This document shows, in pieces, positions 6,412-61,042 of a stretch of 64,000 nt of DNA (position 1 is the stretch's first letter; every line of letters begins with the position of its first letter). Under the pieces are notes generated by a model. The model saw nothing but the letters and a program-made list of their open reading frames with translations. It did no database searches and was not told the origin of the DNA. Origin of the DNA: Candidatus Doudnabacteria bacterium RIFCSPHIGHO2_01_FULL_45_18 (GTDB taxonomy: Bacteria; Patescibacteriota; Doudnabacteria; UBA920; O2-02-FULL-48-8); contig MFEJ01000023.1 in the NCBI GenBank assembly GCA_001779915.1, positions 6,165 through 70,164 of the forward strand. Direction: 5' to 3'. Both the position numbers and the translations under genes were made by a program.

Positions 6412-8256
6412 ATGAATAAAACCGTCTCGCAAAAACTTAAAAGCCTCCCCCAGAAACCCGGCGTGTATGTTTTTAAAGACGCCAAAGGGTTGGTTCTTTA
6501 TGTGGGCAAGGCGGTGAAATTAAAAAACCGGGTGTCTTCGTATTTCAAAAAAACCGGTGGGGACAACCGCGGCCCCAGAATCCAATTAATGATTTCCCAG
6601 ATCAAGGATCTGGATTATACGGTTTGCGACAATGAGCTCGAAAGTCTGATCCTAGAAAATAACTTTATCAAACAACTCAAGCCCAAATACAACGTCATGC
6701 TGCAGGACGATAAAAACTACCTGTTTCTGAAGATCAATATTAAAGACGAAATTCCGACCATTGGATACGAAAGAAAAATCCTGGATAAATCCGCTCGCTA
6801 CTTCGGCCCGTACACTTCTTCCGTAGCCATCAAAGACACCTTGCGCTTGGTAAGGAAAATTTTTCCATATTGTGCCAATGCCAAGGTTTCCCAGAAACCC
6901 TGTTTTTACTACCACATTGGCAAATGCCCGGGCGTTTGCTTTGGCAAAATCACGCTGGAAGAATACAGAAATAACTACATCAAACCGATTATGCAGTTTT
7001 TAGAAGGTCACCGATCCGAAATTCTCAAAGACTTGCAAGCTCAAATGCGAATTTTTGCCACCCATAAAAAATTCGAAAAAGCGGCAAAAATTCGCGACCA
7101 GATTTTTGCTCTTAATCGCATGCTGGAACGGCAAAAATTAGTGTATCCGAAAAAAATTGACCAAGATGTGTTCTCGATTTTTCAAGATAGGGTGACTTGT
7201 ATCAATTTGTTCATCATCCGAGAAGGCAAAATGATTCAAAAAGAAAACTTTATCCTGGAAAACACCAAACAGCTCTCTCCTGCGGAAATTTTAGAAAACT
7301 TTTTGCCGCGCTACTATCTGGAAGCCAGCAATTGGCCTAAGAAAATTTTGCTACCTGTGGAAATTGATTTCGAACCATTGCGAGGAGTCCGGTCAGATGA
7401 CCGGACGACGAAGCAATCTTACGACAGATCGCCACGCGCCTTCGGCGCTCGCGATGGGCATATTAAAATCGTTATCCCGACCCGAGGCACTAAACTACAG
7501 CTCATGAAACTGGGCGAAAAGAATGCTCAACAGTACTTAGAAGCCCAAGGCGACAAACATTTGCTTGAGGAAGCGCGCCTCTTGTCTTCGCTGAAAGAAC
7601 TCCAGCGCGTGCTGGATTTGCCTGCGCTTCCCGGAAGAATTGAAGCTTATGATATTTCCAACATCCAAGGCACCAATCCGGTCGGATCCATGATTGTCTT
7701 TGATTTCGCAAGGCCAAAAAAATCCGATTACCGCAAATTTAAAATCAAACGCCGGACCGTGTCCGCCGAAGGCTTGCCGAAGGCGGATGACTTTGCCATG
7801 ATGCGGGAAATGCTCGACCGGAGATTCAAAAACGGTTGGTCTAGGCCGGATTTGATCTTAATTGATGGCGGCAAAGGGCAGCTTTCCAGCGCAGTCAGTG
7901 TTCTGAAACAAAATAAGCTAAATATCCCAATTATTGGTCTGGCGAAAAGGCTTGAGGAGATTTTCCTGCCCGCAAAAAAACATCCGATTATGTTGCGCGA
8001 TAATTCCATTGCCCTGTTCCTCCTCCAAAGGATCCGTGATGAAGCGCACCGGTTTGCAGTCAAATACCATCGCCAACTTCGATCAAAAACATCACTCACT
8101 TCGGTTCTGGATCAAATCAGCGGCATTGGGGAAGGGAGAAAGAAACAATTGTTACAAAAATTTGGTTCCCCACGCCTTGTTCGCGAAGCTTCGATCACTG
8201 ACCTGGCCGCGATTGTAGGCAAAACTCTTGCGGAAAAAATCAAAGCCAGCCTGTAA
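6412..8256 (+). CDS. uvrC: excinuclease ABC subunit C, carrying an in-frame repeat-element insertion
   Basis: N-terminal GIY-YIG motif (GVYVFKDAKGLVLYVGKA); UvrC homology region and C-terminal HhH; 614 aa. Confidence 0.9.
   Translation: MNKTVSQKLKSLPQKPGVYVFKDAKGLVLYVGKAVKLKNRVSSYFKKTGGDNRGPRIQLMISQIKDLDYTVCDNELESLILENNFIKQLKPKYNVMLQDDKNYLFLKINIKDEIPTIGYERKILDKSARYFGPYTSSVAIKDTLRLVRKIFPYCANAKVSQKPCFYYHIGKCPGVCFGKITLEEYRNNYIKPIMQFLEGHRSEILKDLQAQMRIFATHKKFEKAAKIRDQIFALNRMLERQKLVYPKKIDQDVFSIFQDRVTCINLFIIREGKMIQKENFILENTKQLSPAEILENFLPRYYLEASNWPKKILLPVEIDFEPLRGVRSDDRTTKQSYDRSPRAFGARDGHIKIVIPTRGTKLQLMKLGEKNAQQYLEAQGDKHLLEEARLLSSLKELQRVLDLPALPGRIEAYDISNIQGTNPVGSMIVFDFARPKKSDYRKFKIKRRTVSAEGLPKADDFAMMREMLDRRFKNGWSRPDLILIDGGKGQLSSAVSVLKQNKLNIPIIGLAKRLEEIFLPAKKHPIMLRDNSIALFLLQRIRDEAHRFAVKYHRQLRSKTSLTSVLDQISGIGEGRKKQLLQKFGSPRLVREASITDLAAIVGKTLAEKIKASL
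7365..7447 (+). repeat. family A palindromic element, copy 1 (in-frame inside uvrC)
   Basis: CCATTGCGAGGAG...GACGAAGCAATC...GCGCCTTCGGCGCTCGCGATGG. Translated as PLRGVRSDDRTTKQSYDRSPRAFGARDG inside the UvrC ORF. Confidence 0.85.
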
Positions 8257-8260
8257 GTAC

Positions 8261-8371
8261 CCATCGCGAGCGACTGCTTGATCATATGGCTTTTATCTTG
8301 GCAGTCGCGTGGCGATCCCTCATAAGAGAGATTGCCACGCCTGCCTGTCCGGTAGGCAGGGCAGGCAGGTC
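8261..8371 (-). repeat. family A element, truncated copy 6, fused to a family B GC palindrome
   Basis: Begins 5 bp after the uvrC stop. CCATCGCGAGCGACTGC...GCAGTCGCGTGGCGATC matches the expanded-loop variant of copy 5; then CTGCCTGTCCGGTAGGCAGGGCAGGCAGG. Confidence 0.7.
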
Positions 8372-8496
8372 GCCGCCAAAATTTAATCTTAACGATACAG
8401 CGGCTCCTCGCAATGGGTTGACGTCTAGCTCTTTTTCTGGCAATATATTTGGGTCTCAAATCTACCAACTACCTACTACTAATTACTCACTAATTT

Positions 8497-10622: not shown

Positions 10623-10755
10623 ACTGCCCATAATGCGTCCCGCCAAAGGCGGGAAAATCCCTGCCTGTCGGCAGGCAGGTCTCCGTACCCACCAGAATAG
10701 AGAAATCTTTAAGGCCCCAAAAGGGCTATTTTTATTGGCTAAAAACGCTTAACTA

Positions 10756-14302: not shown

Positions 14303-14388
14303 AGACCTCCCCTACCCCTCCTTTTAAGGAGGGGTATTGTTTTTATCTCTCCTCCTTTTAAGGAGGAGATTAAGAGGAGGTCTAAAAA
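14303..14388 (+). repeat. nested palindrome complex (family C) downstream of rnj
   Basis: Outer stem AGACCTCC...GGAGGTCT encloses CCCCTCCTTTTAAGGAGGGGT and TCTCCTCCTTTTAAGGAGGAGA; the first inner unit also occurs inside valS. Confidence 0.7.
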
Positions 14389-14519: not shown

Positions 14520-15560
14520 ATGCAAGAAACTATCCTTTCTGGTATCCGCGCCTCGGGCAAATTACATCTTGGCAACTATCTAGGTGCTTTAAAGCAATTT
14601 GTGGAATTACAAAATGGAAACTCGTCCGCCGAAGCCTCGGCGAAGGCGGATTGCTATTTTTTTATTGCTGATCTTCACGCACTCACTACCCCGTTTGAAC
14701 CCAAAGAACTGTCACAGAACACGCTGGAAGTAGCCGCTGAATATCTGGCCGCCGGTATTGATCCGGATAAATCGGTGTTTTTTTTGCAAAGCCAAGTTTT
14801 AGAACACGCCCAACTCGCCTGGATCTTTAATTGCCTAACTTCTATAGGCGAACTTGAAAGGATGACTCAATTTAAGGAGAAGACCGAATTTAATGTTACC
14901 GCACGCGGCCGAACTTTAACTATGGGTCACCCAAATAAATTTATAGGCGCTGGGCTTCTAACATATCCGACTCTCATGGCCGCAGACATTTTACTTTACA
15001 AACCTACCGCAGTTCCTGTTGGCGATGACCAAACCCAACATGTGGAATTGACGCGCGACATCGCGAAAAAATTTAACAATCGTTTCGGCGAAACTTTTCC
15101 GATTCCCAAAACTTTTGAACCTGCCCGCCGAAGCCTTGGCGAAGGCGGGAAAAAGCCCCTGCGCATTATGAGCCTAACTGACCCAACCAAAAAAATGAGT
15201 AAGACTGGTGATGAGGCGTTGATGCTTGCTGATTCCCCGGATGAAATTCTGCGCAAACTCAAAAAGGCTGTCACGGCCACCGATACAAACCAAGGCTCAC
15301 CCGGGGTTGATAATCTTAAATTTTTACTGGACCAATTCGGTGGAACTGATCAAGTTCAAGATTTTACTAAATACAATGACGTGAAAGAAACACTTGCTAA
15401 AGTCATTACTAACTACTTTGCTGATTTTCGTGAGAAGAAAGCTAAACTTTTACAAAATCCCAAACAAGTGACTGACATTTTGAATGCTGGCGCGGCCAAA
15501 GCGCAAAAAATCGCATCCCGAACGTTAAACGAAGTGAAGGCAAAAATTGGGTTGATTTAA
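14520..15560 (+). CDS. trpS: tryptophan--tRNA ligase
   Basis: Class I synthetase with a KMSKT (KMSKS) motif and N-terminal GIRASGKLHLGNYLGAL. Confidence 0.8.
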   Translation: MQETILSGIRASGKLHLGNYLGALKQFVELQNGNSSAEASAKADCYFFIADLHALTTPFEPKELSQNTLEVAAEYLAAGIDPDKSVFFLQSQVLEHAQLAWIFNCLTSIGELERMTQFKEKTEFNVTARGRTLTMGHPNKFIGAGLLTYPTLMAADILLYKPTAVPVGDDQTQHVELTRDIAKKFNNRFGETFPIPKTFEPARRSLGEGGKKPLRIMSLTDPTKKMSKTGDEALMLADSPDEILRKLKKAVTATDTNQGSPGVDNLKFLLDQFGGTDQVQDFTKYNDVKETLAKVITNYFADFREKKAKLLQNPKQVTDILNAGAAKAQKIASRTLNEVKAKIGLI

Positions 15561-23032: not shown

Positions 23033-23159
23033 CCATTGCGAGGAGGCCAATTTATTATAAAGCTCTATTCTTGTGGCCGACGCGGCAATCTGACTCTTTG
23101 GTTAGATCGCCACGCGCCTGTCAAGATTTGAGCTTTAATAAAGCAGTCGCTCGCGATGG
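23033..23159 (+). repeat. family A element copy 7 (expanded-loop variant) in the 5' region of the lipoprotein gene
   Basis: CCATTGCGAGGAG...CGACGCGGCAATCT...GATCGCCACGCGCC...AAAGCAGTCGCTCGCGATGG. Confidence 0.75.
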
Positions 23160-31020: not shown

Positions 31021-32100
31021 ATGAAAAAAATTCTGAAAATTTTAAGTATAGAAACCAGTTGCGACGAGACTGCGGCGGCGGTGATTGTTAATGGCACGAT
31101 TAAATCCAACATTATTGCCTCCCAAGTCAAGCTGCACGCAAAATTTGGCGGGGTCGTCCCAGAAGTAGCCGCTCGCGAACATCTAATGGCTATCATCCCG
31201 ACTATAGATTTGGCTTTAAAAACTGCAAAAACAAATTTGGAAGACCTGGATTACATCGCAGTCACACAAGGACCTGGGCTTGCGACCTCGCTTATGGTCG
31301 GCATTGATACCGCGAAAGCCTTAGGCGCGGCTTTGGATATCCCGGTTATCCCCATCAATCATTTGGAAGCGCATATATACGCGAACTTCGTTAAACCTTT
31401 AACCATTGCGAGGAGCGTAGCGACGAAGCAATCTTACGATAGATCGCCACGCGCCTTCGGCGCTCGCGATGGTAATATTTTCCCCTCCCTGATTCTCATC
31501 GTCTCTGGCGGGCACACGCTTTTGGTCCAAATGAGGGATCATGGCCAATATCATATTTTAGGTGAGACGGTGGATGATGCTGCGGGGGAAGCCTTTGATA
31601 AAACCGCCAAGATGTTGGGGTTGGGTTATCCTGGCGGGCCAGCGCTTTCCAAATTGGCAAAATCTGGTAACCCAACAGCCTTTAATTTCCCGCGCCCCAT
31701 GCTTAACTCGGCTAATTTTGAATTCAGTTTCTCGGGGCTGAAGACCGCCGTGCTGTACAAAATCATGGAACATGAAACATGGAACATGAAACAGAAAGCA
31801 GATATAGCCGCCTCGGTCCAGGCCGCGATCGTGGATGTCTTAATCGCTAAATTAGAAAAAGCTATCCAAAGATACCACCCGAAAACCATTATGTTAGGCG
31901 GTGGGGTGGCGGCCAACGAACTTTTGCGCCAGCGTTTCAAGTTTCAAGCTTCACGTTTCAAAATTCATTGCTCTATTCCAGCACTGGAGTACTGCACTGA
32001 CAATGCAGCCATGATCGGACTCGCAGCTTACCATCGTTTGATCAGAAAAAAACCGCAAACAAAAAATTTCTCGGCTCAACCCAATCTGAGCTTAAAATGA
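31021..32100 (+). CDS. tsaD: tRNA N6-adenosine threonylcarbamoyltransferase TsaD, carrying an in-frame repeat-element insertion
   Basis: SIETSCDETAAAV and a GGH metal motif; the insertion encodes TIARSVATKQSYDRSPRAFGARDGN. Confidence 0.9.
   Translation: MKKILKILSIETSCDETAAAVIVNGTIKSNIIASQVKLHAKFGGVVPEVAAREHLMAIIPTIDLALKTAKTNLEDLDYIAVTQGPGLATSLMVGIDTAKALGAALDIPVIPINHLEAHIYANFVKPLTIARSVATKQSYDRSPRAFGARDGNIFPSLILIVSGGHTLLVQMRDHGQYHILGETVDDAAGEAFDKTAKMLGLGYPGGPALSKLAKSGNPTAFNFPRPMLNSANFEFSFSGLKTAVLYKIMEHETWNMKQKADIAASVQAAIVDVLIAKLEKAIQRYHPKTIMLGGGVAANELLRQRFKFQASRFKIHCSIPALEYCTDNAAMIGLAAYHRLIRKKPQTKNFSAQPNLSLK
31403..31472 (+). repeat. family A palindromic element copy 2 (in-frame inside tsaD)
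   Basis: CCATTGCGAGGAGCGTAGCGACGAAGCAATCTTACGATAGATCGCCACGCGCCTTCGGCGCTCGCGATGG. Confidence 0.85.
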
Positions 32101-32112
32101 TATAATACTGGC

Positions 32113-34293
32113 ATGCGAGAAATTCCGAAAACTTACGACCAATCCAAAGAAACGGACATCTACCAACTCTGGGAATCATCCGGGTTTTTTAATCCTGACA
32201 ATCTTTCGGGCAAACCGTTTACCATCATGATGCCGCCACCCAATGCCACAGGCACGCTACATATTGGGCACGCGTTTGAAACATCAATCCAAGATATCTT
32301 GATTCGCTACCACAGGATGAAGGGAGAAAAAACGCTATGGTTACCGGGCACTGATCACGCCGCTATTGCCACAAATACCAAAGTTGAAAAAATTTTGATT
32401 AAGGAAACCGGCAAAAACCGCCATGATATTGGCCGCGAGGCATTTGTAAAAAAAGTTGAAGAGTTTGTGGAAAAAAGTCGTGGTACGATTCAACAACAAT
32501 TGCGAACTGTGGGTGCTTCCGCCGACTGGTCGCGCGAAGCGTTTACATTTGATGAACCCCGCAACCTGGCGATCCGAACCGCGTTTAAGAAAATGTTTGA
32601 GGCTGGGCTGATTTATCGCGGTATCCGCGTGATCAACTGGGATCCGAAAGGTCAGACTTCGGTTTCGGATGACGAAGTCGTCCATAAATCCGAAAAAGCC
32701 CAGCTATATACGTTTAAATATTCGAAAGACTTTCCAATTGCTATCGCAACCACTCGGCCGGAAACTAAAGTGGGTGATGTGGCAGTGGCCGTACATCCTG
32801 CTGATGTTCGCTATAAAAAATTTGTAGGCCAAGAATTCAAAGTCAATTTTGCTGGCGCTGATTTAAATATCAAAATCGTGGCCGATGAATCCGTGGACCC
32901 AGAATTTGGCACAGGTGCGGTTGGAGTTACGCCCGCACATAGCATGGCAGACTTTGACATTGCTCAAAGACACAATTTGCCAGCGCCACAAGTGATCAAC
33001 GAATTTGCAAAAATGACCGACACGGCCGGTTCTTTGATTGCTGGTAAAAAAACCAAAGAAGCTCGTGAGATAATAGTCGCTTGGCTAACTGAACAAGGCT
33101 TGTTAGAAAAAACTGAAGCCATAGATATCAATCTTGCTACTGCGGAACGAAGCGGCGGTACGATTGAACCTTTACCAAAACTCCAATGGTTTGTAAATGT
33201 AAACAAGGCCGTGGCCGAACGGAGCGGAAAAACGCTGAAAGAGCTAATGCGTGACGCTGTAGCAAGTGGCAAAATAAAAATCCTCCCAGAACGATTTGAA
33301 AAAACATATTTTCATTGGATAGATAATTTACGCGATTGGAACATCAGCCGCCAGCTTTGGTACGGCCACCGGATTCCGGTTTGGTACAAAGGTGAGGAAA
33401 TTTATTCCGGGATTGAAGAACCGGAAGGCAGTGGCTGGTCGCAAGACGAAGACACTTTAGACACTTGGTTCTCCTCGGCACTTTGGACGTTCTCGACTTT
33501 AGGTTGGCCAAACGAAACTGCTGATCTCAAAACATTCCACCCAACAGATGTCATGGCACCTGGGTACGAAATTCTGTTTTTCTGGGTAGCGCGCATGATT
33601 CTTATGAGCACGTTTCTGCTTGACGACGTGCCGTTTAAAACCGTTTATCTGCATGGCATTGTTCGCGATATCCAAGGCAAAAAGTTCAGCAAATCTCTAG
33701 ACAATGGGATTGATCCAGTAGAAGTCATTAAACAATACGGCGCCGATGCCTTACGCATGGGTTTGGTCGTGGGGGTGGGTGCAGGCAATGACAGTAAATA
33801 TGACCAAATGAAAGTGAAAGGCTATCGCAATTTCGCGAACAAAATTTGGAATGCAGCTAGATTTGTCATGCAAAACACTCAAGACATGACCCCCTCTAAC
33901 TCCCCCTTAAAAGGGGGAGAGAAAAAGAACCCCCCTCCTTTTAAGGAGGGGTTGGGGGAGGTCAAACTCACCCCCGAAGACCAAGCTATTCTCTACGAAC
34001 TTAATCAACTCTTGGCCAAAACTACTATACAAATGGACAACTTTGACTTTGCGCATGCGGCGGAAAACCTGTATCACTACTTCTGGCACACTTTTGCGGA
34101 CAAAATCCTCGAAGAATCAAAAGTCAAACTTGCGAATGAGAAAACAAAAGCCTCGGCGCAACTCATGCTCAAAACCATCCTGGAAACTTCGTTAAAACTT
34201 CTGCATCCGTTCATGCCATTTGTCACTGAAACCATCTGGCAACTGGATCACAAGGATCTGCTGATGATAGAGAAGTGGCCCCGCCTGCGCTAA
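32113..34293 (+). CDS. valS: valine--tRNA ligase (short form, 726 aa), carrying an in-frame family C palindrome
   Basis: HIGH (LHIGHA) and KMSKS (KFSKS) motifs and an editing domain. Confidence 0.85.
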   Translation: MREIPKTYDQSKETDIYQLWESSGFFNPDNLSGKPFTIMMPPPNATGTLHIGHAFETSIQDILIRYHRMKGEKTLWLPGTDHAAIATNTKVEKILIKETGKNRHDIGREAFVKKVEEFVEKSRGTIQQQLRTVGASADWSREAFTFDEPRNLAIRTAFKKMFEAGLIYRGIRVINWDPKGQTSVSDDEVVHKSEKAQLYTFKYSKDFPIAIATTRPETKVGDVAVAVHPADVRYKKFVGQEFKVNFAGADLNIKIVADESVDPEFGTGAVGVTPAHSMADFDIAQRHNLPAPQVINEFAKMTDTAGSLIAGKKTKEAREIIVAWLTEQGLLEKTEAIDINLATAERSGGTIEPLPKLQWFVNVNKAVAERSGKTLKELMRDAVASGKIKILPERFEKTYFHWIDNLRDWNISRQLWYGHRIPVWYKGEEIYSGIEEPEGSGWSQDEDTLDTWFSSALWTFSTLGWPNETADLKTFHPTDVMAPGYEILFFWVARMILMSTFLLDDVPFKTVYLHGIVRDIQGKKFSKSLDNGIDPVEVIKQYGADALRMGLVVGVGAGNDSKYDQMKVKGYRNFANKIWNAARFVMQNTQDMTPSNSPLKGGEKKNPPPFKEGLGEVKLTPEDQAILYELNQLLAKTTIQMDNFDFAHAAENLYHYFWHTFADKILEESKVKLANEKTKASAQLMLKTILETSLKLLHPFMPFVTETIWQLDHKDLLMIEKWPRLR
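33900..33952 (+). repeat. family C palindromes (CTCCCCCTTAAAAGGGGGAG + CCCCTCCTTTTAAGGAGGGGT) in-frame in valS
   Basis: The second unit matches 14315..14335 exactly; translated SPLKGGEKKNPPPFKEGLG. Confidence 0.75.
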
Positions 34294-34424: not shown

Positions 34425-34997
34425 TTATTTAAATCTCACTGGTACGGCAAACGAAGAGTCAAATTCGGGTAACCCCGAGGGATTATCTTTTTCAATAATC
34501 AACACGCCGTATTCCGCATCACCTGGATCAAACGGTAAACTTACGGCGAAAGGCACATAGTCACTAGTCATCCAATCGCCTAGAGCTTGTGCTCCGACTT
34601 GGAATAAAATATTACCCTTATCATCTTTCAGGATGATTGGCAGGTTCGCTTCAAAATACCAAAAACCGCGGGCACGACCCATGACAGCCATAGGACTCGT
34701 GACAAGTTCACCAAACGCAGGTGTATCCACAATCACTTCCGGTTCATTATGTTCGGCTTCGTTAAATACCAAACCTCGGTATTCACATTTCACCGGTTCA
34801 CCGTCAATAATGATCCCGCCGGCCAGTTCACAAGATTGAAAATCCGTCACTTCCGGCCCAACTTTTCTCTGGATGATAAATAAAGCTAATCCGGCCAGGA
34901 TAATCAACACGCCAATTTGTAGCAACCGATTATTCATAAAGGCAGTATAATTAGTAATTAGTAAGGAGTAAAGAGCGACGAAAAAACAAAAAACCAT
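34425..34997 (-). CDS. membrane-anchored hypothetical protein (possible Gmad2-like Ig domain)
   Basis: N-terminal TM; start ambiguous (ATG at 34997 inside the repeat terminus, or a downstream MNNRLL). Confidence 0.4.
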   Translation of the reverse strand: MVFCFFVALYSLLITNYTAFMNNRLLQIGVLIILAGLALFIIQRKVGPEVTDFQSCELAGGIIIDGEPVKCEYRGLVFNEAEHNEPEVIVDTPAFGELVTSPMAVMGRARGFWYFEANLPIILKDDKGNILFQVGAQALGDWMTSDYVPFAVSLPFDPGDAEYGVLIIEKDNPSGLPEFDSSFAVPVRFK

Positions 34998-35077
34998 TGC
35001 GAGGAGTCCTGGTTGCTCGGGACGACGAAGCAATCTATCCTAATGACAGATCGCCACGGCCTTCGGCCTCGCGATGG
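34994..35077 (+). repeat. family A element copy 3 (between rpoC and the downstream gene)
   Basis: CCATTGCGAGGAGTCCTGGTTGCTCGGGACGACGAAGCAATC...GGCCTTCGGCCTCGCGATGG. Confidence 0.8.
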
Positions 35078-35100: not shown

Positions 35101-38100
35101 TTATAAGTTATCTGCCACTTCGGCCGCTTCTTTTTCACCCAAGGCCTCGGCGCGATACCCGGTGCCGGCCGGGATGAGTTTGCCGATGATGACGTTTTCT
35201 TTCAAACCTCGCAGGTAATCAGTTTTGGCAGTGATGGCGGCCTCAATCAGGACACGGGTAGTTTCTTGGAAACTTGCCGCAGCCAAGAATGATTCCGTGT
35301 TTAGAGATGACTTCGTAATGCCCATGAGCAGCTGCTCAACTTCAGCCTTGCGTCCCTTGGCCGCAACTTTGGCATTGGATAATTTTAGCCGAGATTTATC
35401 AATCAAATCCCCAACCAAGGTATCGGTATCACCCGGCTCGGTGATGCGGACTTTGGAAAACATCTGCCGGACGATAATCTCAATGTGCTTTTCGTTGACA
35501 TTCTGCCCTTGGGAAGAATAAATTTCCTGCACGTCTTTGATGATATAGTCCTGACAAGCTTCAATGCCTTTGAGCGCGAACACCTGATGTAAGTTGAGGT
35601 TACCTTCGGTCAAAGGTTGGCCTTTGGTGATTAGAGATTTCTCTTTAACAATCACGCTATATCCAGAGGGGACAGTGTATTCCTTAAAATTCTCACCTTC
35701 GCGCACCACAGTCAGTTTATCCTTACCAAGCTTAACTATCCCTGCCGCCTTGGCTTTGACGATCACACCTTTAATATTGGTGAACAATGGATCGCCTTCG
35801 TTAACTTTCTCCCCGTCAGTCAGCTGTAATTTCCCGCCTGGCAGCAAATATTCATCCTTGACCACATCCTTGGTTTCCACCCGAATAGTGGTTTCTTTAT
35901 TCGTGGCTTTGATGTTGGTCACAAATCCGTCAATTTCAGAAATCAAGGCTTGTCCTTTTGGCTCTCTGGCTTCCAGCAACTCCTCAACCCGCGGCAATCC
36001 TTGGGTGATATCTAAACCCGCCACACCGCCGGTGTGGAAAGTTCGCATGGTCAGCTGGGTGCCTGGTTCGCCAATGGCTTGGGCCGCCACAATTCCCACA
36101 GCCGCGCCCAGCTCCACCGGTTTGTTAAATCCTAAATCGTAACCATAACATTTGGCGCACACGCCGCGTGTGAGGGTACAGCGAAGCACGGTGCGAACTT
36201 CTGCCTCCGCTGCGGTAGACTTGTCAATTTCCTGAGCCAATTTTTCATCAATCATGGACCCGGCTTTGGCCACAACTAAACTCTTGGCGTCTTTGACGTC
36301 AGAAGCAAGTACTCGGCCAAAAATTCGACGGGCCAGCGGCCGGCCCAAGGCTTCCGAAGAAACTCTGGTAATGACGCGCCCGGAATCAATTTCACAATCA
36401 TCCGCGTTAATCACAATGTCTTGCGCCACATCCACCAAACGACGAGTCAGGTACCCGGCGTCAGCCGTACGAAGGGCGGTGTCGGTCATCCCTTTTCTGG
36501 ACCCGTGGGTGGAAATAAAATATTCCAAAATATTCAAACCTTCTTTAAACGAATCACGAGCTGGGAGTTCAATAACTTCTCCGGCCGGATTGGTCACGAG
36601 TCCCTTCATGCCGGCCATTTGGGCGACCTGGGAGACTGAACCTCTGGCTCCGGAGTTGACCATCTGATACACCGTGCCGTATTCGTCCAAAGTCGTGGTG
36701 ATGGCCTCGGTCACCTTATCGCGAACCTCGGCCCAAATTTCAATGACCCGGTTATAACGCTCCTGCGCGGTGAGCAACCCTTGCTGATACTGTTCCAGGG
36801 TTTTTAAAACTTCCTCATCAGCTTTTACCAACAGCTCTTTTTTGATCTCTGGGACTTTCAAATCATCCATACCCCAAGAAATTCCTGATTTGGTCACATA
36901 ATGAAACCCGACACCCTTGATATCATCCAGAAGTTGCGCCGTGCGCTCAATTCCATAATCGCGGTAGCAAACCTGCACCACTTGCTGTAAGCGTTTCTTA
37001 TCCATGACATCATTGTTAAACCGCATGCCTTCAGGCAAAACCTGATTGAAAATAATCCGGCCCACACAAGTCTCTAGACGCTGCTTATTGCCCCAGCTTT
37101 CATCTAACCGCACGGAAATTTTCGCTTTCAAACTAATAATCTCGGAAAGATAAGCCAAAAGGGCTTCATCGGCTGATCCAAAAAACTTGCCTTCCCCTTT
37201 TTCTTTCGGATGAATCCGGGTCAACCAATAACAACCCAAGACCATGTCCTGGTTCGGGCCCATGATCGGCTCACCGGAAGCCGGCTTGAGCAAATTTTTG
37301 GCAGACAGCATGATGTTGCGAGCTTCTTCTTGGGCCGGAGCGGTTAAAGAAACGTGTACCGCCATCTGGTCCCCGTCAAAGTCCGCGTTAAAAGCCGGAC
37401 AGACCAAAGGATGAATCTGAATAGCTTTGCCTTCAATCAAAACCGGCAAGAAAGCCTGGAAACCCAAACGGTGCAAGGTTGGCGCGCGGTTTAAAAGCAC
37501 ATAATGTCCTTTGGTCACTTCTTCCAAAATATCGTAGACCACGGTCGCGCCCTGTTCAATGAGCCGATTCGCCGACCTCACATTGTGCGCGTATTCGCGC
37601 TGAATAAGCTTGGAAGTCACAAATGGCTTAAATAATTCTAAAGCCATTTTTTTAGGAAGACCGCATTGGTGCAGTTTCAAACTCGGTCCCCCGACAATAA
37701 CGGAACGACCGGAATAGTCCACTCGTTTACCTAAAAGATTTTGTCGGAAACGGCCTTGTTTACCTTTGAGCATGTCCGCCAAAGATCGGAGCTTGCGTTT
37801 TTGTCCGGTCGAGGCAGTCACTTCCTTGCCGTGCCTGATGGAATTATCAATCAGGGCGTCCACGGCTTCCTGCAGCATGCGCTTTTCATTACGGGTGATT
37901 ACTTCCGGCGCGCCGATTTCCAAAAGTTTTTTTAGTCGATTGTTGCGATTAATGACCCGGCGATACAAATCATTTAAATCAGACGCAGCAAACCGGCCGC
38001 CGTCTAACTGCACCATTGGGCGCAAATCCGGCGGAATCACCGGTAGGTTGTTGATGATCATCCACTCCGGACGAATAGCAGCCTTGATCATGGATTTGAC

Positions 38101-38931
38101 GAGTTTCAACCGTTTGATCAATTTACGCTTATATACGCCTTCGGCGATTACGATTTCTTCATGAAGTTGCGTAAATAATTTTTCCAAATCAATTTCTTCG
38201 ACGAGTTGGGTAATCGCCGCGGCTCCAATCCCGGCCGCGAATACTGGCCCATATTTTAAAGACAGGTCACGATATTCAAGTTCGGAAATAATCTGGTATT
38301 TTTTAATGGACTTAAGTTCAGAGCGCGCCAGATCGCGGATGCTTTCCAAATGTTCAACTTCCTTGCCCCACATGTCGCGCACGCGCACGGTTTCCGGATC
38401 AGAGGAATTGTTTTGTTTAACCAAATTCTCATATCGGCTGTCAATTTCCCGGCGCTTAGCTTTGAATTCCCGTTCAATCTGCTCGGTCGTTTGGGCCCGG
38501 GCATCTTCATCCACACTGGTAATAATGTAAGAAGCAAAGTAAACAACTTTTTCCAGTTCCTGTACTGACAGATCTAGGATTAATCCTAAACGGGAAGGCA
38601 CGCCTCGTAAAAACCAGATGTGGGCCACCGGGGCGGCCAGCTTAATATGGCCCATGCGTTCGCGCCTGACCGAGGCGCGGGTCACTTCCACCCCGCACTT
38701 GTCGCAAACAATACCTTTGTAGCGGATACGTTTATATTTACCACAATAACATTCCCAGTCTTTGATCGGGCCGAAAATCTTTTCATCAAATAGCCCATCT
38801 TTTTCCGGCCGCTGGGTCCGGTAGTTGATCGTTTCCGGCTTGGTCACCTCACCATAAGACCAATTCAAAATATCCGCGGGAGAAGCGAGTCTCAAACGAA
38901 CAGCTTTAAATTCTTCGGTCTGTTGGAGCAT
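35101..38931 (-). CDS. rpoC: DNA-directed RNA polymerase subunit beta'
   Basis: 1276 aa with the NADFDGD catalytic motif. Confidence 0.95.
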
Positions 38932-58296: not shown

Positions 58297-59473
58297 GACC
58301 ATTGCGAGGAGGAACGTTCCGACGAAGCAATCTTTAAAAAAGATCGCCACGGCCTTCGGCCTCGCGATGGTTATTTATTTATTTATCGTGCCTAATCTTG
58401 CATCGGCCAAAACCTTGCTCTTTTTCGACAAAACTTGGGAAGTTTTACCGTTCCCGTCAGGCACGGTTAACCTCCTGCCCATCAGAAACGACCTGGACTT
58501 AACTATGCTTGCCAAGCAAGCTATTTTGGGGCGCGAGGAACTGGCTCAGACCTGGCTCTTAGACGAAATCTCGATCAAACAACTGGATGATATCAGTAGT
58601 CAGGTCAACCAAGTCGGCCAAGATGCCAAACTGGTTATGGACGGAAATCGCGCCGCGGAATTTAATCCGGGACAAAACGGCCAGGCTTTGGATTTATATA
58701 CGCTTAAAATTCTGCTACGGTCAGACCAAGCGGAAATCAGTCTGCCAGTTTTAATCAGCGAACCGGCGGTTAAATTATCCGACACGAACCGTCTTGGGAT
58801 TAACGAGCTGGTGGCTGTGGGTGAATCGGATTTTGCAGGTTCACCAAAAAACCGGATTCACAACCTGACGGTAGGAGCGAATAAATTCAATGGCCTCATC
58901 ATAGAGCCGGGTGAAGTATTTTCGTTTAATAAGTATTTGGGTGACGTGGATGGCGAGCACGGCTTTTTACCGGAACTGGTGATTAAAGCTGGCGGCGTGA
59001 CCCCAGAATTCGGCGGTGGGCTTTGCCAAGTTTCCTCCACGACCTTCCGGGCGGCCATGAACGCCGGTTTGCCGATTACGGCTAGACGAAACCACAGCTT
59101 TGCGGTACAATACTATGCTCCCCAGGGAACGGATGCCACGATCTATCCCGGAGCCGTAGATTTAAAATTTGTTAATAATTTGCCAAGCAAATTGTTGATT
59201 CAAACCAAAATTGTGGGAACCAAATTATATTTTAACTTGTACGCCACGAAAGATAATCGAACGGTAAGCTTTGAAGGCCCCACCCAATACGATCAGAAGC
59301 CTGATGGATCCATGAAAGCGATCTGGACCAGGCATGTGACCCTTAATGGCCAAACTACGGATCAAGAGTTTAAAAGCGCGTATTCCCCGCCAGCGCTGTA
59401 TCATCGCGATTCATCAGAACAAAGCGCAACTCCCAATCCTGATGCGCAACCAGATCCACAACCGACCACTTAA
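58259..59473 (+). CDS. VanW-family protein; its N-terminal tail/TM runs through a family A element
   Basis: GGGLCQVSSTTFRAAMNAGL VanW motif; start uncertain (ATG 58259 overlapping tsaE, or ATG 58363 inside the repeat terminus). Confidence 0.65.
   Translation: MINAILQSSFKIRTIARRNVPTKQSLKKIATAFGLAMVIYLFIVPNLASAKTLLFFDKTWEVLPFPSGTVNLLPIRNDLDLTMLAKQAILGREELAQTWLLDEISIKQLDDISSQVNQVGQDAKLVMDGNRAAEFNPGQNGQALDLYTLKILLRSDQAEISLPVLISEPAVKLSDTNRLGINELVAVGESDFAGSPKNRIHNLTVGANKFNGLIIEPGEVFSFNKYLGDVDGEHGFLPELVIKAGGVTPEFGGGLCQVSSTTFRAAMNAGLPITARRNHSFAVQYYAPQGTDATIYPGAVDLKFVNNLPSKLLIQTKIVGTKLYFNLYATKDNRTVSFEGPTQYDQKPDGSMKAIWTRHVTLNGQTTDQEFKSAYSPPALYHRDSSEQSATPNPDAQPDPQPTT
58299..58370 (+). repeat. family A element copy 4
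   Basis: CCATTGCGAGGAGGAACGTTCCGACGAAGCAATCTTTAAAAAAGATCGCCACGGCCTTCGGCCTCGCGATGG. Confidence 0.85.
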
Positions 59474-59482
59474 ACATTCTTT

Positions 59483-60928
59483 ATGATCAAAATAAGTACG
59501 AACAAAACCATTCAGACTGATCTAATCATTCTGCCCTTGTTCGAAAAAGACCAATCACCAATCGCGCTACCACAGGCAGTGCTTTTGGATTTCAAAAATA
59601 CTTTAGGGGCAACCCAAATGGTTTACTCCAATCAAGGCCAGAAGCGGATTTTGCTTGTAGGGCTCGGCCACAAGCAAAAGTTTGGACCCCAAGCCTGGCG
59701 GCAAGCCATACACAGCATCATGTCTTATATCAGAACCTTGGATGTGGCCCAAGCATCATTGGTTCTGCCCAAAGTTTCTAAACTTTCACCAGTGAAGTTC
59801 ATGGAACTGACGGCTTTTGGCGTAATTTTCAGCCACTACCATTTTGACGAATATAAACAAGAAAAAACTCCAAGAAAACTTCAAAGCCTGGAACTAATTA
59901 CCAAAATAAGCGGCAAAAAAATCAATCAGGCCATCGAACACGGCATCATTATCGGCCTGGCCGCCAATGAAGCCCGAAGTCTTGCCAACCATCCAGGCAA
60001 CTTGGTCACCCCAAGCCATTTAGCCAAATACGCGCAGGAGTTAGCGCGAAAATATAAATTCGCCTGTAAAATTTTAGGCCCTGCCGAAATCAAGAAAGAA
60101 AAAATGGGCCTGCTTGCCGGTGTGGCTAAGGGTTCGGATGAACCAGCTAGATTTATAGTGCTCGAATACCTGCCTGCCGGCAGGCAGGCGGAAAATAAAA
60201 AACTTGAACCAATTGTCTTAATCGGCAAGGGGCTGACTTTTGATTCCGGCGGCATATCTATTAAGCCGGCGGATCGCATGGAAGAAATGAAATATGACAT
60301 GTGTGGCGCCGCTGACGTCCTGGCAATTTTTGAAGCCGTCAGTCAACTGAAATTACCAATCCACCTTATTGGTTTAATTCCCTCGACCGAGAACTTAATT
60401 TCTGGCCAAGCCACCAAGCCGGGCGACATTTTAATTTCCAAATCAGGAGTCAGTGTGGAGATTGTTAACACCGATGCCGAAGGCCGCCTGGTGCTGGCGG
60501 ATGCAATTGATTACGCCAGAGCGCACTTTCAACCAAAGCTCATTATTGATTACGCCACCTTAACCGGCGCCGTGCTTGTGGCCTTAGGAGATCAGCTAGC
60601 CGGATTTTTTGCCAATACCAAATCGTATGACGCCGGATTTAAAAAAGCGGCGGCGACAGCTGCGGAAAATTTTTGGCCTCTCCCCATGCCAGAAGAATAT
60701 AAAGAACATATTAAAAGCCAAGTGGCTGATATCCGAAACGTGGGGGAAAAAGGATTGGCCGGAGCAACAGCCGGCGCCATGTTTTTAGAACATTTCATCG
60801 GCACAACCCCTTGGATCCACTTAGATATCGCCGGCACGGCCTGGACCATGCGGCCTAAACCATCGCTGGCGGTTGGGGCCACGGCCTGGGGGGTTTATCT
60901 AACCGTGGACTTTTTGCGCAACCTTTAG
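59483..60928 (+). CDS. pepA: leucyl aminopeptidase (M17)
   Basis: NTDAEGRL motif; 481 aa. Confidence 0.85.
   Translation: MIKISTNKTIQTDLIILPLFEKDQSPIALPQAVLLDFKNTLGATQMVYSNQGQKRILLVGLGHKQKFGPQAWRQAIHSIMSYIRTLDVAQASLVLPKVSKLSPVKFMELTAFGVIFSHYHFDEYKQEKTPRKLQSLELITKISGKKINQAIEHGIIIGLAANEARSLANHPGNLVTPSHLAKYAQELARKYKFACKILGPAEIKKEKMGLLAGVAKGSDEPARFIVLEYLPAGRQAENKKLEPIVLIGKGLTFDSGGISIKPADRMEEMKYDMCGAADVLAIFEAVSQLKLPIHLIGLIPSTENLISGQATKPGDILISKSGVSVEIVNTDAEGRLVLADAIDYARAHFQPKLIIDYATLTGAVLVALGDQLAGFFANTKSYDAGFKKAAATAAENFWPLPMPEEYKEHIKSQVADIRNVGEKGLAGATAGAMFLEHFIGTTPWIHLDIAGTAWTMRPKPSLAVGATAWGVYLTVDFLRNL
60169..60188 (+). repeat. family B palindrome CCTGCCTGCCGGCAGGCAGG in-frame inside pepA
   Basis: Translated LPAGRQA; perfect 20-bp palindrome. 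Confidence 0.7.
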
Positions 60929-60933
60929 TCAAC

Positions 60934-61042
60934 CCATCGCGAGCGACTGCTTTATATATTCAGCTTAACCCTTGGCAGTCGCGTGGCGATCTTAATTAAG
61001 ATTGCTTCGTCGTCCCGATAAATCGGGACTCCTCGCAATGGG
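60934..61042 (-). repeat. family A element copy 5 (reverse orientation, expanded-loop variant) between pepA and ruvB
   Basis: The reverse complement reads CCATTGCGAGGAGTCCCGATTTATCGGGACGACGAAGCAATC...GCGACTGCC...AAAGCAGTCGCTCGCGATGG. Confidence 0.8.

Follow-up and report, generated by a model that had tools for sequence, protein, structure and literature searches.

A REP-like palindromic repeat present in more than ten phyla lies in frame within two essential genes, tsaD and uvrC, in a Candidatus Doudnabacteria genome

The tsaD gene of Candidatus Doudnabacteria bacterium RIFCSPHIGHO2_01_FULL_45_18 contains a palindrome within its reading frame, which raises the question of what kind of element this is and how it comes to be accommodated in a coding sequence. 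We examined the gene within a 64-kb stretch of DNA, referred to here as the window. The gene (31021–32100, plus strand; Pfam PF00814 TsaD, E = 2.7e-93) encodes 359 aa, compared to ~331–340 aa for TsaD orthologues. In a codon alignment with the orthologues at loci L068 and L069, exactly 24 extra codons fell between ...KPL and NIFPS..., corresponding to an in-frame insert of 72 nt (31402–31473, plus strand) made up of a 70-nt palindromic core (31403–31472) and the flanking A/T, with the peptide T-I-A-R-S-V-A-T-K-Q-S-Y-D-R-S-P-R-A-F-G-A-R-D-G. The element was absent from all 119 of the other TsaD orthologues listed. Query residues 125–154 face 7 residues of Thermotoga maritima TsaD in the PDB alignment, and AlphaFold2 modelled the insert as a disordered loop (pLDDT ~51, compared to a model average of 91); both results bear out the proposal, made by a sequence-only reading, that the site is a loop just 5' of the VSGGHT strand.

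A sister copy, identified as a covariance-model match with an 18-nt P2 hairpin, lies in frame within uvrC (6412–8256) at 7375–7457 on the plus strand and adds 28 codons (P-L-R-G-V-R-S-D-D-R-T-T-K-Q-S-Y-D-R-S-P-R-A-F-G-A-R-D-G). As that reading had stated, both ORFs run through their copies. The tsaD and uvrC copies are 95% identical over their 3' 59 nt, and a 31-nt block at the 3' end occurs exactly twice in the window (31442–31472 and 7427–7457; chance expectation 0). Their different 5' frames and common 3' frame, also recognized earlier, are explained by an indel in the internal hairpin P2, which measures 5 nt in the tsaD copy and 18 nt in the uvrC copy: since the difference of 13 nt amounts to four codons plus one base, the two copies are read in the same frame on its 3' side and in different frames on its 5' side. 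Most of 90 orthologues have nothing at the UvrC site, and others have related or unrelated repeats there; from the orthologue comparison, the TsaD and UvrC loops both take unrelated repeat families as well. Exhaustive comparison of the 31-aa uvrC insert to 1.84 billion representative proteins by phmmer yielded no match at E ≤ 0.001, owing to the shortness of the query, and tblastn with UvrC against the collected loci matched only the element-encoded peptide, in unrelated context (L072, L098).

A covariance model identified seven copies and no further match in the window, with the tsaD copy at the top (82.6 bits). All seven share four blocks and so form a single repeat family, as had been claimed. 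Two copies are genic (tsaD and uvrC) and five intergenic; all five of the latter lie 2–23 nt after a stop codon, between co-directional genes, and four of them are antisense to the flanking genes. A long copy 4 nt past the uvrC stop (8261–8416, minus strand) has a different palindrome nested within it, and a second long copy (23033–23159, plus strand) lies 21 nt downstream of the stop of the minus-strand glutamate dehydrogenase gene. The copy at 34994–35077 (plus strand) is 23 nt downstream of the stop of a minus-strand ORF (35101–38931), which encodes RNA polymerase beta' by similarity to L068, and 59 nt upstream of the ATG of a Gmad2-like gene. The copy at 60934–61041 (minus strand), with a long P4 hairpin, lies 5 nt past the stop of ORF 59483–60928, upstream of ruvB. 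The remaining copy (58299–58370, plus strand) starts 3 nt past the tsaE stop, and the first canonical start of the VanW-like ORF is an ATG at 58367, within the 3' arm of the element, which probably starts that gene. The sequence-only reading had this copy read as KIATAFGLAMV; the frame is indeed open, but with the tsaE stop on one side and the ATG at 58367 on the other, most of the copy is probably untranslated.

Each copy is built as a head-to-head dimer of two REP-like units, ATTGC...GCAAT (A) and ATCGC...GCGAT (B), with a minority of A plus inverted-A homodimers (for example at L022:1407, L070 and L113). The basal stem of a unit is 5 bp; beyond it come an internal loop (GAG/CGACGAA, or CAC/none) and a distal hairpin of 5 to ~60 nt. 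The tsaD core reads CCATTGCGAG GAG CGTAG CGACGAA GCAATC TTACGATA GATCGC CACG CGCCTTCGGCG CTCGCGATGG. Its unit A (31403–31433, plus strand) comprises arm a CCATTGCGAG, a GCGTAGC mini-hairpin in the P2 position (one variant of GCGNAGC), the junction CGACGAA and arm a' GCAATC, a block structure common to all copies. A spacer that differs in length and sequence in every copy follows, forming the loop of helix P3 (31434–31441, plus strand), and then the inverted unit B (31442–31472, plus strand), with arm b GATCGC, CAC, the hairpin P4 GCGCC-TTC-GGCGC and arm b' CTCGCGATGG.

The distal hairpins vary in sequence while their pairing is kept. Consecutive end pairs averaged 4.39 in P4 compared to 0.74 in shuffles (94 distinct sequences, with 15 different basal stems), and 4.05 compared to 0.68 in P2. 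Furthermore, the stem of unit A, ATTGC/GCAAT, covaries to ACTGC/GCAGT in other copies, that of unit B, ATCGC/GCGAT, changes as a pair to ATTGC/GCAAT in homodimer copies, and the outermost pair of the outer helix is A-T, G-C or C-G among copies. Inversion of the two units also allows one strand to adopt a four-way junction, which an outer helix of 10–11 bp closes.

It had been suggested that the element is stop-free in several frames and that this is a hallmark of repeats selected for tolerance within coding sequence. The four conserved blocks do contain no stop triplet on either strand, although 11% of shuffled block sets are stop-free as well, and the excess of open frames is slight: 2.81 of 6 per copy, compared to 2.53 ± 0.13 in dinucleotide shuffles. 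The six full-pattern copies in the window have 2.33 compared to 2.40. Thus, openness comes mostly from shortness and G+C content, and the hallmark reading is not supported. In low-GC loci, 46 of 57 copies are intergenic and 11 are inside long ORFs, all 11 of them <100 nt; long variants contain several stops, and none of 17 long copies is genic, compared to 11 of 45 short ones. Selection sorts which insertions survive, and has no visible action on the consensus. Outside the window, seven of nine host ORFs have Pfam matches: two PrmC, LigD, an IleRS-like class I tRNA synthetase, a GT4 glycosyltransferase, UDP-GlcNAc 2-epimerase and a DHOD Fe-S subunit. Its position is inter-domain in LigD and in the GT4 glycosyltransferase, and the UvrC, PrmC and IleRS sites are each occupied in several genomes.

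The exact 26-base pattern of the element occurs in 67 stretches of GTDB representative genomes, from seven Doudnabacteria MAGs, other Patescibacteria, Verrucomicrobiota and alpha-, beta-, gamma- and delta-proteobacteria to Chloroflexota, Acidobacteriota, Omnitrophota, Nitrospinota and Ignavibacteria, and additionally in 35 metagenome stretches and 7 viral-contig stretches. The element is present in more than ten phyla, with cross-phylum conservation overstated because the pattern scans held the conserved blocks fixed. Some genomes carry tandem arrays (loci L009, L017 and L028), and the unit is 92–100% identical to plasmid sequences of Methylosinus, Methylocystis and Novosphingobium aromaticivorans. 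In copies from outside the CPR, position −1 is G in 54 of 54 cases and position −2 is C or T in 51 of 54, so that this end reads YGTC-ATTGC, whereas the seven window copies have ACC, TCC, CCC or GCC before ATTGC and not the GTC tag. CCA directly follows GCAAT in 46 of the 114 unique copies, most of these from outside the CPR; at this position CTT, CTA or CTC stands in low-GC copies, and CTT or CTA in those of the window.

Features of this kind are described for the CGTC-tagged REP superfamily, with families CGTC-1 to CGTC-4 (Di Nocera, De Gregorio and Rocco 2013, BMC Genomics 14:522, PMC3733652). The CGTC REPs have an AT-first stem of 8–9 bp with a loop of 4–5 nt, a terminal (C/T)GTC tag outside the stem (CGTC, TGTC or CCTC, unpaired) and an unpaired 3-nt CCA tail, and they mostly form head-to-head dimers, commonly heterodimers, with the tags outside, folding apart or as one large structure (PMC3733652). 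Intergenic copies follow closely on the upstream ORF's 3' end, in co-directional or convergent gene pairs, while others add 20–30 aa in frame to uvrA/B/C/D, dnaE2, tRNA synthetase and RNA-modification genes; hosts span several phyla, the repeats have no dedicated transposase, and Rickettsia RPE-4 is identified with CGTC-4, and RPE-6 with CGTC-1 (PMC3733652).

Our element agrees with the CGTC REPs in that its stems open with an A-T and then a T-A pair (ATTGC/GCAAT or ATCGC/GCGAT throughout, allowing for the variants given above), its copies are dimers of A and inverted B with tags or outer arms outside, the intergenic copies in the window all lie just past a stop codon within co-directional pairs, and the unit also occurs in N. 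aromaticivorans, a species named there. It differs in having a unit of 5-bp basal stem, internal loop and variable distal hairpin, in the lack of both GTC tag and CCA tail from the Doudnabacteria copies, in its peptides (VIARSEATKQS and related), which match none of the tabulated ones (VIPAKAGI, VIAGLDPAI and others), and in its hosts, since those published include no Patescibacteria (CPR) (PMC3733652). The element most likely belongs to the CGTC-tagged superfamily or is a close variant of it, a placement that rests on the published text description and the shared host species. In kind, this is an ordinary repeat of a known type in a new host lineage.

The in-frame copies also recall the Rickettsia palindromic elements (RPEs), reportedly described by Ogata and colleagues in 2000. 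RPEs are palindromic repeats known only from Rickettsia that lie in frame in housekeeping genes, where they are translated as extra surface segments, with others intergenic; RPE-1 is 100–150 bp long. Our element is likewise an in-frame palindromic repeat of protein-coding genes, with intergenic copies, in a small gene-dense genome, but its sequence differs from RPE-1 to RPE-8, its host is a Candidatus Doudnabacteria, in keeping with the best-named relatives of its TsaD and UvrC, and it extends to more than ten phyla.

REPINs and E. coli BIMEs, which consist of two inverted REP units with a spacer and are associated with RAYT (Y1/HUH) transposases (PMC3116915, PMC2817692), offer a further parallel in the two inverted units with a spacer, in a heterodimer like that of the Y and Z units of BIMEs, in tandem arrays in some genomes and in the lack of a target duplication. 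In contrast to REPINs, the element has no conserved GTAG at the hairpin foot and no RAYT gene recurs near copies in the 67 loci; moreover, each REPIN population belongs to one lineage and passes down vertically, while several phyla share this element. Its sequence is absent from the REP/RAYT papers PMC6006769 and PMC2817692. The ERIC/RU-1, RU-2 and RU-3 elements are small mobile enterobacterial repeats, mostly intergenic, some with open frames in genes (PMC2759123, PMC2229807); they are unrelated in sequence, longer (103–168 bp) and MITE-like in organization. Literature searches with the encoded peptides and DNA words returned chance primer matches only, and we found no earlier account of palindromic or in-frame repeats in CPR/Patescibacteria.

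We consider it probable, at roughly three in four, that the element is a non-autonomous REP/BIME-type palindromic repeat, a head-to-head heterodimer, whose genic copies are translated survivors. It would spread within genomes by a trans-acting activity that leaves no target duplication, and within the gene-dense genome of Doudnabacteria, insertions into genes would mostly be lost. Those surviving would be short, of a whole number of codons, stop-free in the frame used and placed in permissive loops or inter-domain linkers, and would be transcribed and translated as 24–30 hydrophilic, disordered residues; the tsaD and uvrC copies would then be two survivors of one subfamily, in which the P2 indel produced the different 5' frames. 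Frame and stop constraints are what suggest that the insert is actually translated, and it is presumably neutral for protein function.

The main competitor, which we regard as unlikely, is that the element is a structured RNA, such as a stabilizer of mRNA 3' ends, a terminator, a processing site or a small RNA, with the junction under selection and the genic copies incidental. RNA folding far under the level of shuffled sequences (uvrC copy, z = −5.1; tsaD copy, z = −2.7), the position of all five intergenic copies shortly after stop codons, conservation of P2 and P4 in structure and not in sequence, and a T·G position kept in the outer helix, which pairs only as G·U in RNA on that strand, are all consistent with such a role. 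However, helix P3 has a conserved A·C mismatch on the very strand with the G·U, such that neither strand makes a clean RNA, and the DNA fold is equally good on either strand. The antisense orientation of four of the five intergenic copies also argues against it, as does one beta-proteobacterial lineage that keeps the stem ACTGC/GCAGT and sacrifices the junction helices. Rfam gave no match to the element: the only hits in the window at gathering score were two tRNAs, and at E ≤ 10 over 7340–8450 there was nothing relevant. Ribozyme, tRNA-like, intron and integron attC readings were dropped, given that Rfam and ARAGORN lent no support, that genic copies are under frame and stop constraints and that the attC consensus is missing.

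We think it very unlikely that the element is a DDE-type MITE, although it does have terminal inverted repeats (CCATTGCGAG and CTCGCGATGG), many dispersed copies and orthologous sites that are either filled or empty. Scanning 115 copies revealed no target duplication of 2–5 nt at any boundary offset; the best 2-nt configuration was seen in 13 of 61 copies of CC type and 22 of 54 of TC type, the top one of TC type overlapping the element's own end, and there was none of 3–5 nt. Because the closest relatives are only ~70% identical in DNA, with no empty site above 80% nucleotide identity among them, the exact insertion junction and the lack of a duplication are provisional. Furthermore, all-against-all clustering of ORFs from the 67 loci revealed no transposase, and no other gene family, recurring near copies; among the ORFs listed, those between neighbouring copies start like ordinary gene products, with no RAYT evident. 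The conserved internal half-sites, a palindrome of palindromes, are also not needed for recognition of terminal repeats. The weakest alternative, that the inserted peptide is a selected functional module altering TsaD and UvrC activity, in line with the speculation of Di Nocera et al. on REP tags in repair genes (PMC3733652), draws on the enrichment of hosts in repair and translation genes (UvrC, LigD, TsaD, IleRS and PrmC), in agreement with the published CGTC gene list (PMC3733652), and on the reuse of the UvrC, PrmC and IleRS sites, but is highly improbable given that the same DNA is read in various frames and orientations into unrelated peptides, that identical loops accept unrelated repeat families, and that the insert is predicted to be disordered and is patchy among close orthologues.

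A REP/BIME-type origin adds the candidate phyla radiation to the range of intragenic REP/RPE-type elements, or "selfish DNA in genes", and presents certain loops (the TsaD loop before VSGGHT, the UvrC loop in the PF22920 region, the PrmC loop and the IleRS loop) as places where several unrelated repeat families insert repeatedly. For annotation and alignment, such inserts matter in that they make proteins longer, can supply start codons and cause misleading similarity among proteins that are not related. The search for what mobilizes transposase-less CGTC-type REPs could also draw on the small gene set of CPR genomes. Given a core that is near-identical across more than ten phyla, and no dedicated transposase, we considered that the four-way junction might be the recognition structure of a widely conserved host enzyme that mobilizes the whole CGTC-type REP superfamily, which is a long shot; if true, the minimal gene sets of element-propagating CPR bacteria would sharply narrow the candidate enzymes. 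Candidates of this sort are replication-, repair- or recombination-associated nucleases or recombinases acting on single-stranded DNA.

The tsaD ORF (31021-32100; Pfam TsaD, E = 2.7e-93) carries a 70-nt copy of the palindromic element at 31403-31472 (+), CCATTGCGAGGAGCGTAGCGACGAAGCAATCTTACGATAGATCGCCACGCGCCTTCGGCGCTCGCGATGG, which is translated as TIARSVATKQSYDRSPRAFGARDG, and the uvrC ORF (6412-8256) carries another at 7375-7457 (+), translated as PLRGVRSDDRTTKQSYDRSPRAFGARDG. The two copies are 95% identical over their 3' 59 nt, and the window contains exactly two occurrences of the 31-nt 3' block, for which chance predicts none. Their sole large difference is an internal hairpin, of 5 nt in tsaD and 18 nt in uvrC; since this 13-nt gap equals four codons plus one base, the copies are read in different 5' frames and a common 3' frame, as the sequence-only reading had correctly described.

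The tsaD insert occupies a loop. TsaD is 359 aa long in the window, compared to about 331-340 aa in orthologues, and when its codons are aligned with those of two relatives, the excess is exactly 24 codons, located between KPL and NIF. This insert is present in none of the 119 other TsaD orthologues listed; the closest relative (P0002, 78% identity) has another palindromic repeat (SPSLKGG...PPFKGELEG) in this loop, and other relatives have at least two further repeat families there. In alignment to solved structures, query residues 125-154 lie opposite 7 residues (123-129) of T. maritima TsaD, between the VSGGHT strand and the helix after the HxxxH motif, and AlphaFold2 (60 sequences) predicts the insert without secondary structure (pLDDT ~51, compared to a mean of 91.4 for TsaD). 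The corresponding UvrC site is a short loop in most of 90 orthologues, with a PPLKGG-type repeat in at least six and related element copies in three (P0126, P0138 and P0161); the frames used in these copies are different ones. A selected peptide module is a weaker explanation of the element.

Additional genes carry the element. Of the 57 copies in low-GC loci that had sufficient flanking sequence, 11 fall within long ORFs, 9 in sense and 2 in antisense orientation. Besides tsaD and uvrC of the window, seven of nine host ORFs have a Pfam match and two have none; the matches are to PrmC (twice), LigD (whose ligase and primase-polymerase domains flank the insert), an IleRS-like class I tRNA synthetase, a GT4 glycosyltransferase (with its two domains separated by the insert), UDP-GlcNAc 2-epimerase and a DHOD Fe-S subunit. 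Two IleRS orthologues have the filled site in common. In PrmC orthologues (L063:5308-5381 compared to L022:1407-1479 and L022:1731-1804), a shared site is filled by copies that point in opposite directions, and one of the two element-bearing orthologues has a further copy elsewhere; this suggests that the element either inverted by way of its own inverted arms or inserted independently more than once. We also note that UvrC tblastn searches matched an unrelated locus (L072:6068-6352, L098:4173-4457; E = 1e-7) solely via the element-encoded peptide, so that such inserts create spurious protein similarity.

We considered whether genic copies are translated or excised. Every genic copy is below 100 nt in length, no gene contains any of the 17 long copies (hypergeometric p ~0.02, from counts in low-GC loci), and the long forms have AT-rich loops holding several stops. 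Since the frame used is stop-free in every genic copy, and the tsaD insert, for which this was shown, is a whole number of codons, these features favor simple read-through translation over excision.

The sequence-only reading had also taken stop-freeness as a mark of selection for coding tolerance, and this part is not supported. The four conserved blocks are free of stop triplets on both strands, but so are 11% of shuffled block sets. Whole copies have 2.81 of six frames open, compared to 2.53 +/- 0.13 in dinucleotide shuffles; the figure is 3.9 (3.36 shuffled) for short copies and 2.33 (2.40 shuffled) for the six full-pattern window copies. Since these counts are near those of the shuffles, frame openness is mostly composition and length. 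The refuting outcome named with that reading, stops in most frames together with many broken genes, was not observed either; no window gene is visibly broken by a copy. We conclude that selection filters insertions; shaping of the consensus for coding tolerance is not supported by the data.

The window has seven copies, at 7375-7457(+), 8261-8416(-), 23033-23159(+), 31403-31472(+), 34994-35077(+), 58299-58370(+) and 60934-61041(-), and a covariance model (28 instances) found the same seven and no others. All copies share four blocks in constant order, CCATTGCGAG(GAG), CGACG(A/C)(A/G)GCAATC, GATCGCCACG and CTCGCGATGG, separated by three variable segments. As a single strand of RNA or DNA, each folds into a four-way junction comprising an outer helix of 10-11 bp (P1), whose outermost pair alternates A-T, G-C and C-G, a GCAATC/GATCGC helix with a conserved A.C mismatch (P3), and two variable hairpins (P2 and P4) in which pairing is kept while the sequence changes. 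Specifically, P4 has a mean of 4.39 consecutive end pairs (0.74 shuffled) and 15 different 4-bp basal stems among 94 distinct segments, and P2 a mean of 4.05 (0.68 shuffled; 43 distinct segments). Rfam has no family for the element, and a structured RNA element is a weaker reading. The reverse-complemented 3' half (GTCATCGCGAG-hairpin-CGTGGCGATCC) nearly matches the 5' half (GTCATTGCGAG-hairpin-CG..GCAATCC); therefore, the element consists of two inverted units, each an imperfect palindrome. Unit stems covary pairwise (ATTGC/GCAAT, ATCGC/GCGAT and ACTGC/GCAGT were seen), and the heterodimer is commoner, although homodimers (A + inverted A) also occur. The long copy at 8261-8416 is a repeat inserted into a repeat: a different palindrome, CCTGCCTACCGGACAGGCAGG, with further window copies at 10659, 12545 and 60168, is nested between P2 and P3.

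The element is a REP-type palindromic repeat of known kind, and the nearest published description is the CGTC-tagged REP superfamily, which includes Rickettsia RPE-4 and RPE-6 and Neisseria dRS3 (Di Nocera et al. 2013, PMC3733652). Those REPs have an unpaired CGTC or TGTC tag, a stem opened by A-T and T-A pairs and a CCA tail; they lack a dedicated transposase, adjoin the 3' end of the upstream ORF, and occur mainly as head-to-head dimers, often heterodimers, with tags outside, which can fold separately or as one large structure. Intragenic copies are in frame and encode 20-30 aa, notably in uvrA/B/C/D, recBCD, dnaE2, tRNA synthetase and RNA-modification genes; decorated uvrC is tabulated for R. 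conorii and X. autotrophicus, and decorated isoleucyl-tRNA synthetase for E. litoralis (PMC3733652). Similarly, our copies from outside the candidate phyla radiation (CPR) read YGTC-ATTGC...GCAAT-CCA, with the YGTC tag in 51 of 54 and CCA as the commonest tail. In contrast, tag and tail are degenerate in the window copies, each unit combines a 5-bp stem with an internal loop and a distal hairpin, where the published REPs have a stem of 8-9 bp and a loop of 4-5 nt, and the element-encoded peptides are absent from the published table (PMC3733652). Compared by published description rather than by consensus sequences, the element is a REP dimer that behaves like the CGTC superfamily and is probably a member of it; any placement in one of the four published families would be tentative. 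The literature searched contains no earlier report of this Doudnabacteria lineage as a host.

Modules are mixed between copies: one locus (L085) combines the 5' half of the tsaD copy with the spacer of the 60934 copy, and another (L095) P2 of the 60934 copy with P4 of the uvrC copy, a pattern that points to exchange between copies by recombination or gene conversion. The copies show no detectable target duplication, and no element-associated gene was found among the loci examined. Most likely, the element would spread by a mode acting on single-stranded DNA hairpins, HUH-like or replication-linked; a DDE-type MITE is a weaker explanation.

Scanning GTDB representatives (one genome per species) with GCAATC-N(4-24)-GATCGCCACG-N(8-38)-CTCGCGATGG, a pattern of 26 fixed bases, yielded 67 stretches. 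Hosts were seven Candidatus Doudnabacteria MAGs with several copies each, other Patescibacteria, Verrucomicrobiota/Opitutia, alpha-, beta-, gamma- and delta-proteobacteria, Chloroflexota, Acidobacteriota, Omnitrophota, Nitrospinota and Ignavibacteria, including two complete chromosomes (Arenicellales and Chloroflexia); because the scans held conserved blocks fixed, cross-phylum conservation is overstated, and the unbiased sample is the ~35 extra copies that the model detected within fetched loci. A stricter pattern matched 35 metagenome stretches, and seven IMG/VR viral contigs carry the element. Three candidates (L024 and L036 from the GTDB scan, L111 from the viral scan) were rejected as chance matches within coding sequence. 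Among cultured bacteria, plasmids of Methylosinus, Methylocystis and Novosphingobium aromaticivorans carry the unit at 92-100% identity, and those of Legionella and Nostocales give weaker matches. The best-named TsaD and UvrC homologues of the window are from Candidatus Doudnabacteria (~70% identity); judged by these, its source is a relative of that group. A MAG labeled Candidatus Saccharibacteria (L069, contig CAYOPE010000025.1) shares synteny with the window and encodes a TsaD 78% identical to that of the window; this label is probably wrong, or the bin mixed. In a beta-proteobacterial MAG (LJ-7-9m_bin-0415), tandem arrays of the element with extra partial 3' units, in which GGCCTCGCGATGAC is repeated (L009, L017 and L028), resemble BIME clusters, and in this lineage the unit stem is altered to ACTGC/GCAGT.

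Unrelated repeats also lie in uvrC and valS. A GC-rich palindrome in uvrC (7756-7786; family CCGCCGAAG..CGAAGGCGG, with more copies at 14619, 15118 and 34280) adds 7-8 residues (TVSAEGLP); T. maritima UvrC lacks them, as do 59 of the 60 Doudnabacteria orthologues shown. In valS (32113-34293), an in-frame palindrome at about 33900-33965, CCCCTCCTTTTAAGGAGGGG, also seen at 14315 and 14349, is translated as SNSPLKGGEKKNPPPFKEGLGEV and is lacking in the L068 orthologue; its family also fills the TsaD loop of P0002/L069 and the UvrC loop of P0123, P0180 and others. Finally, the 3' arm (CTCGCGATGG) of the 58299-58370 copy contains an ATG (58367-58369) that is the first canonical in-frame start of a VanW-like ORF past the tsaE stop; since the resulting N-terminus, MVIYLFIVPNLASA, resembles a signal peptide, this repeat may donate the start codon.
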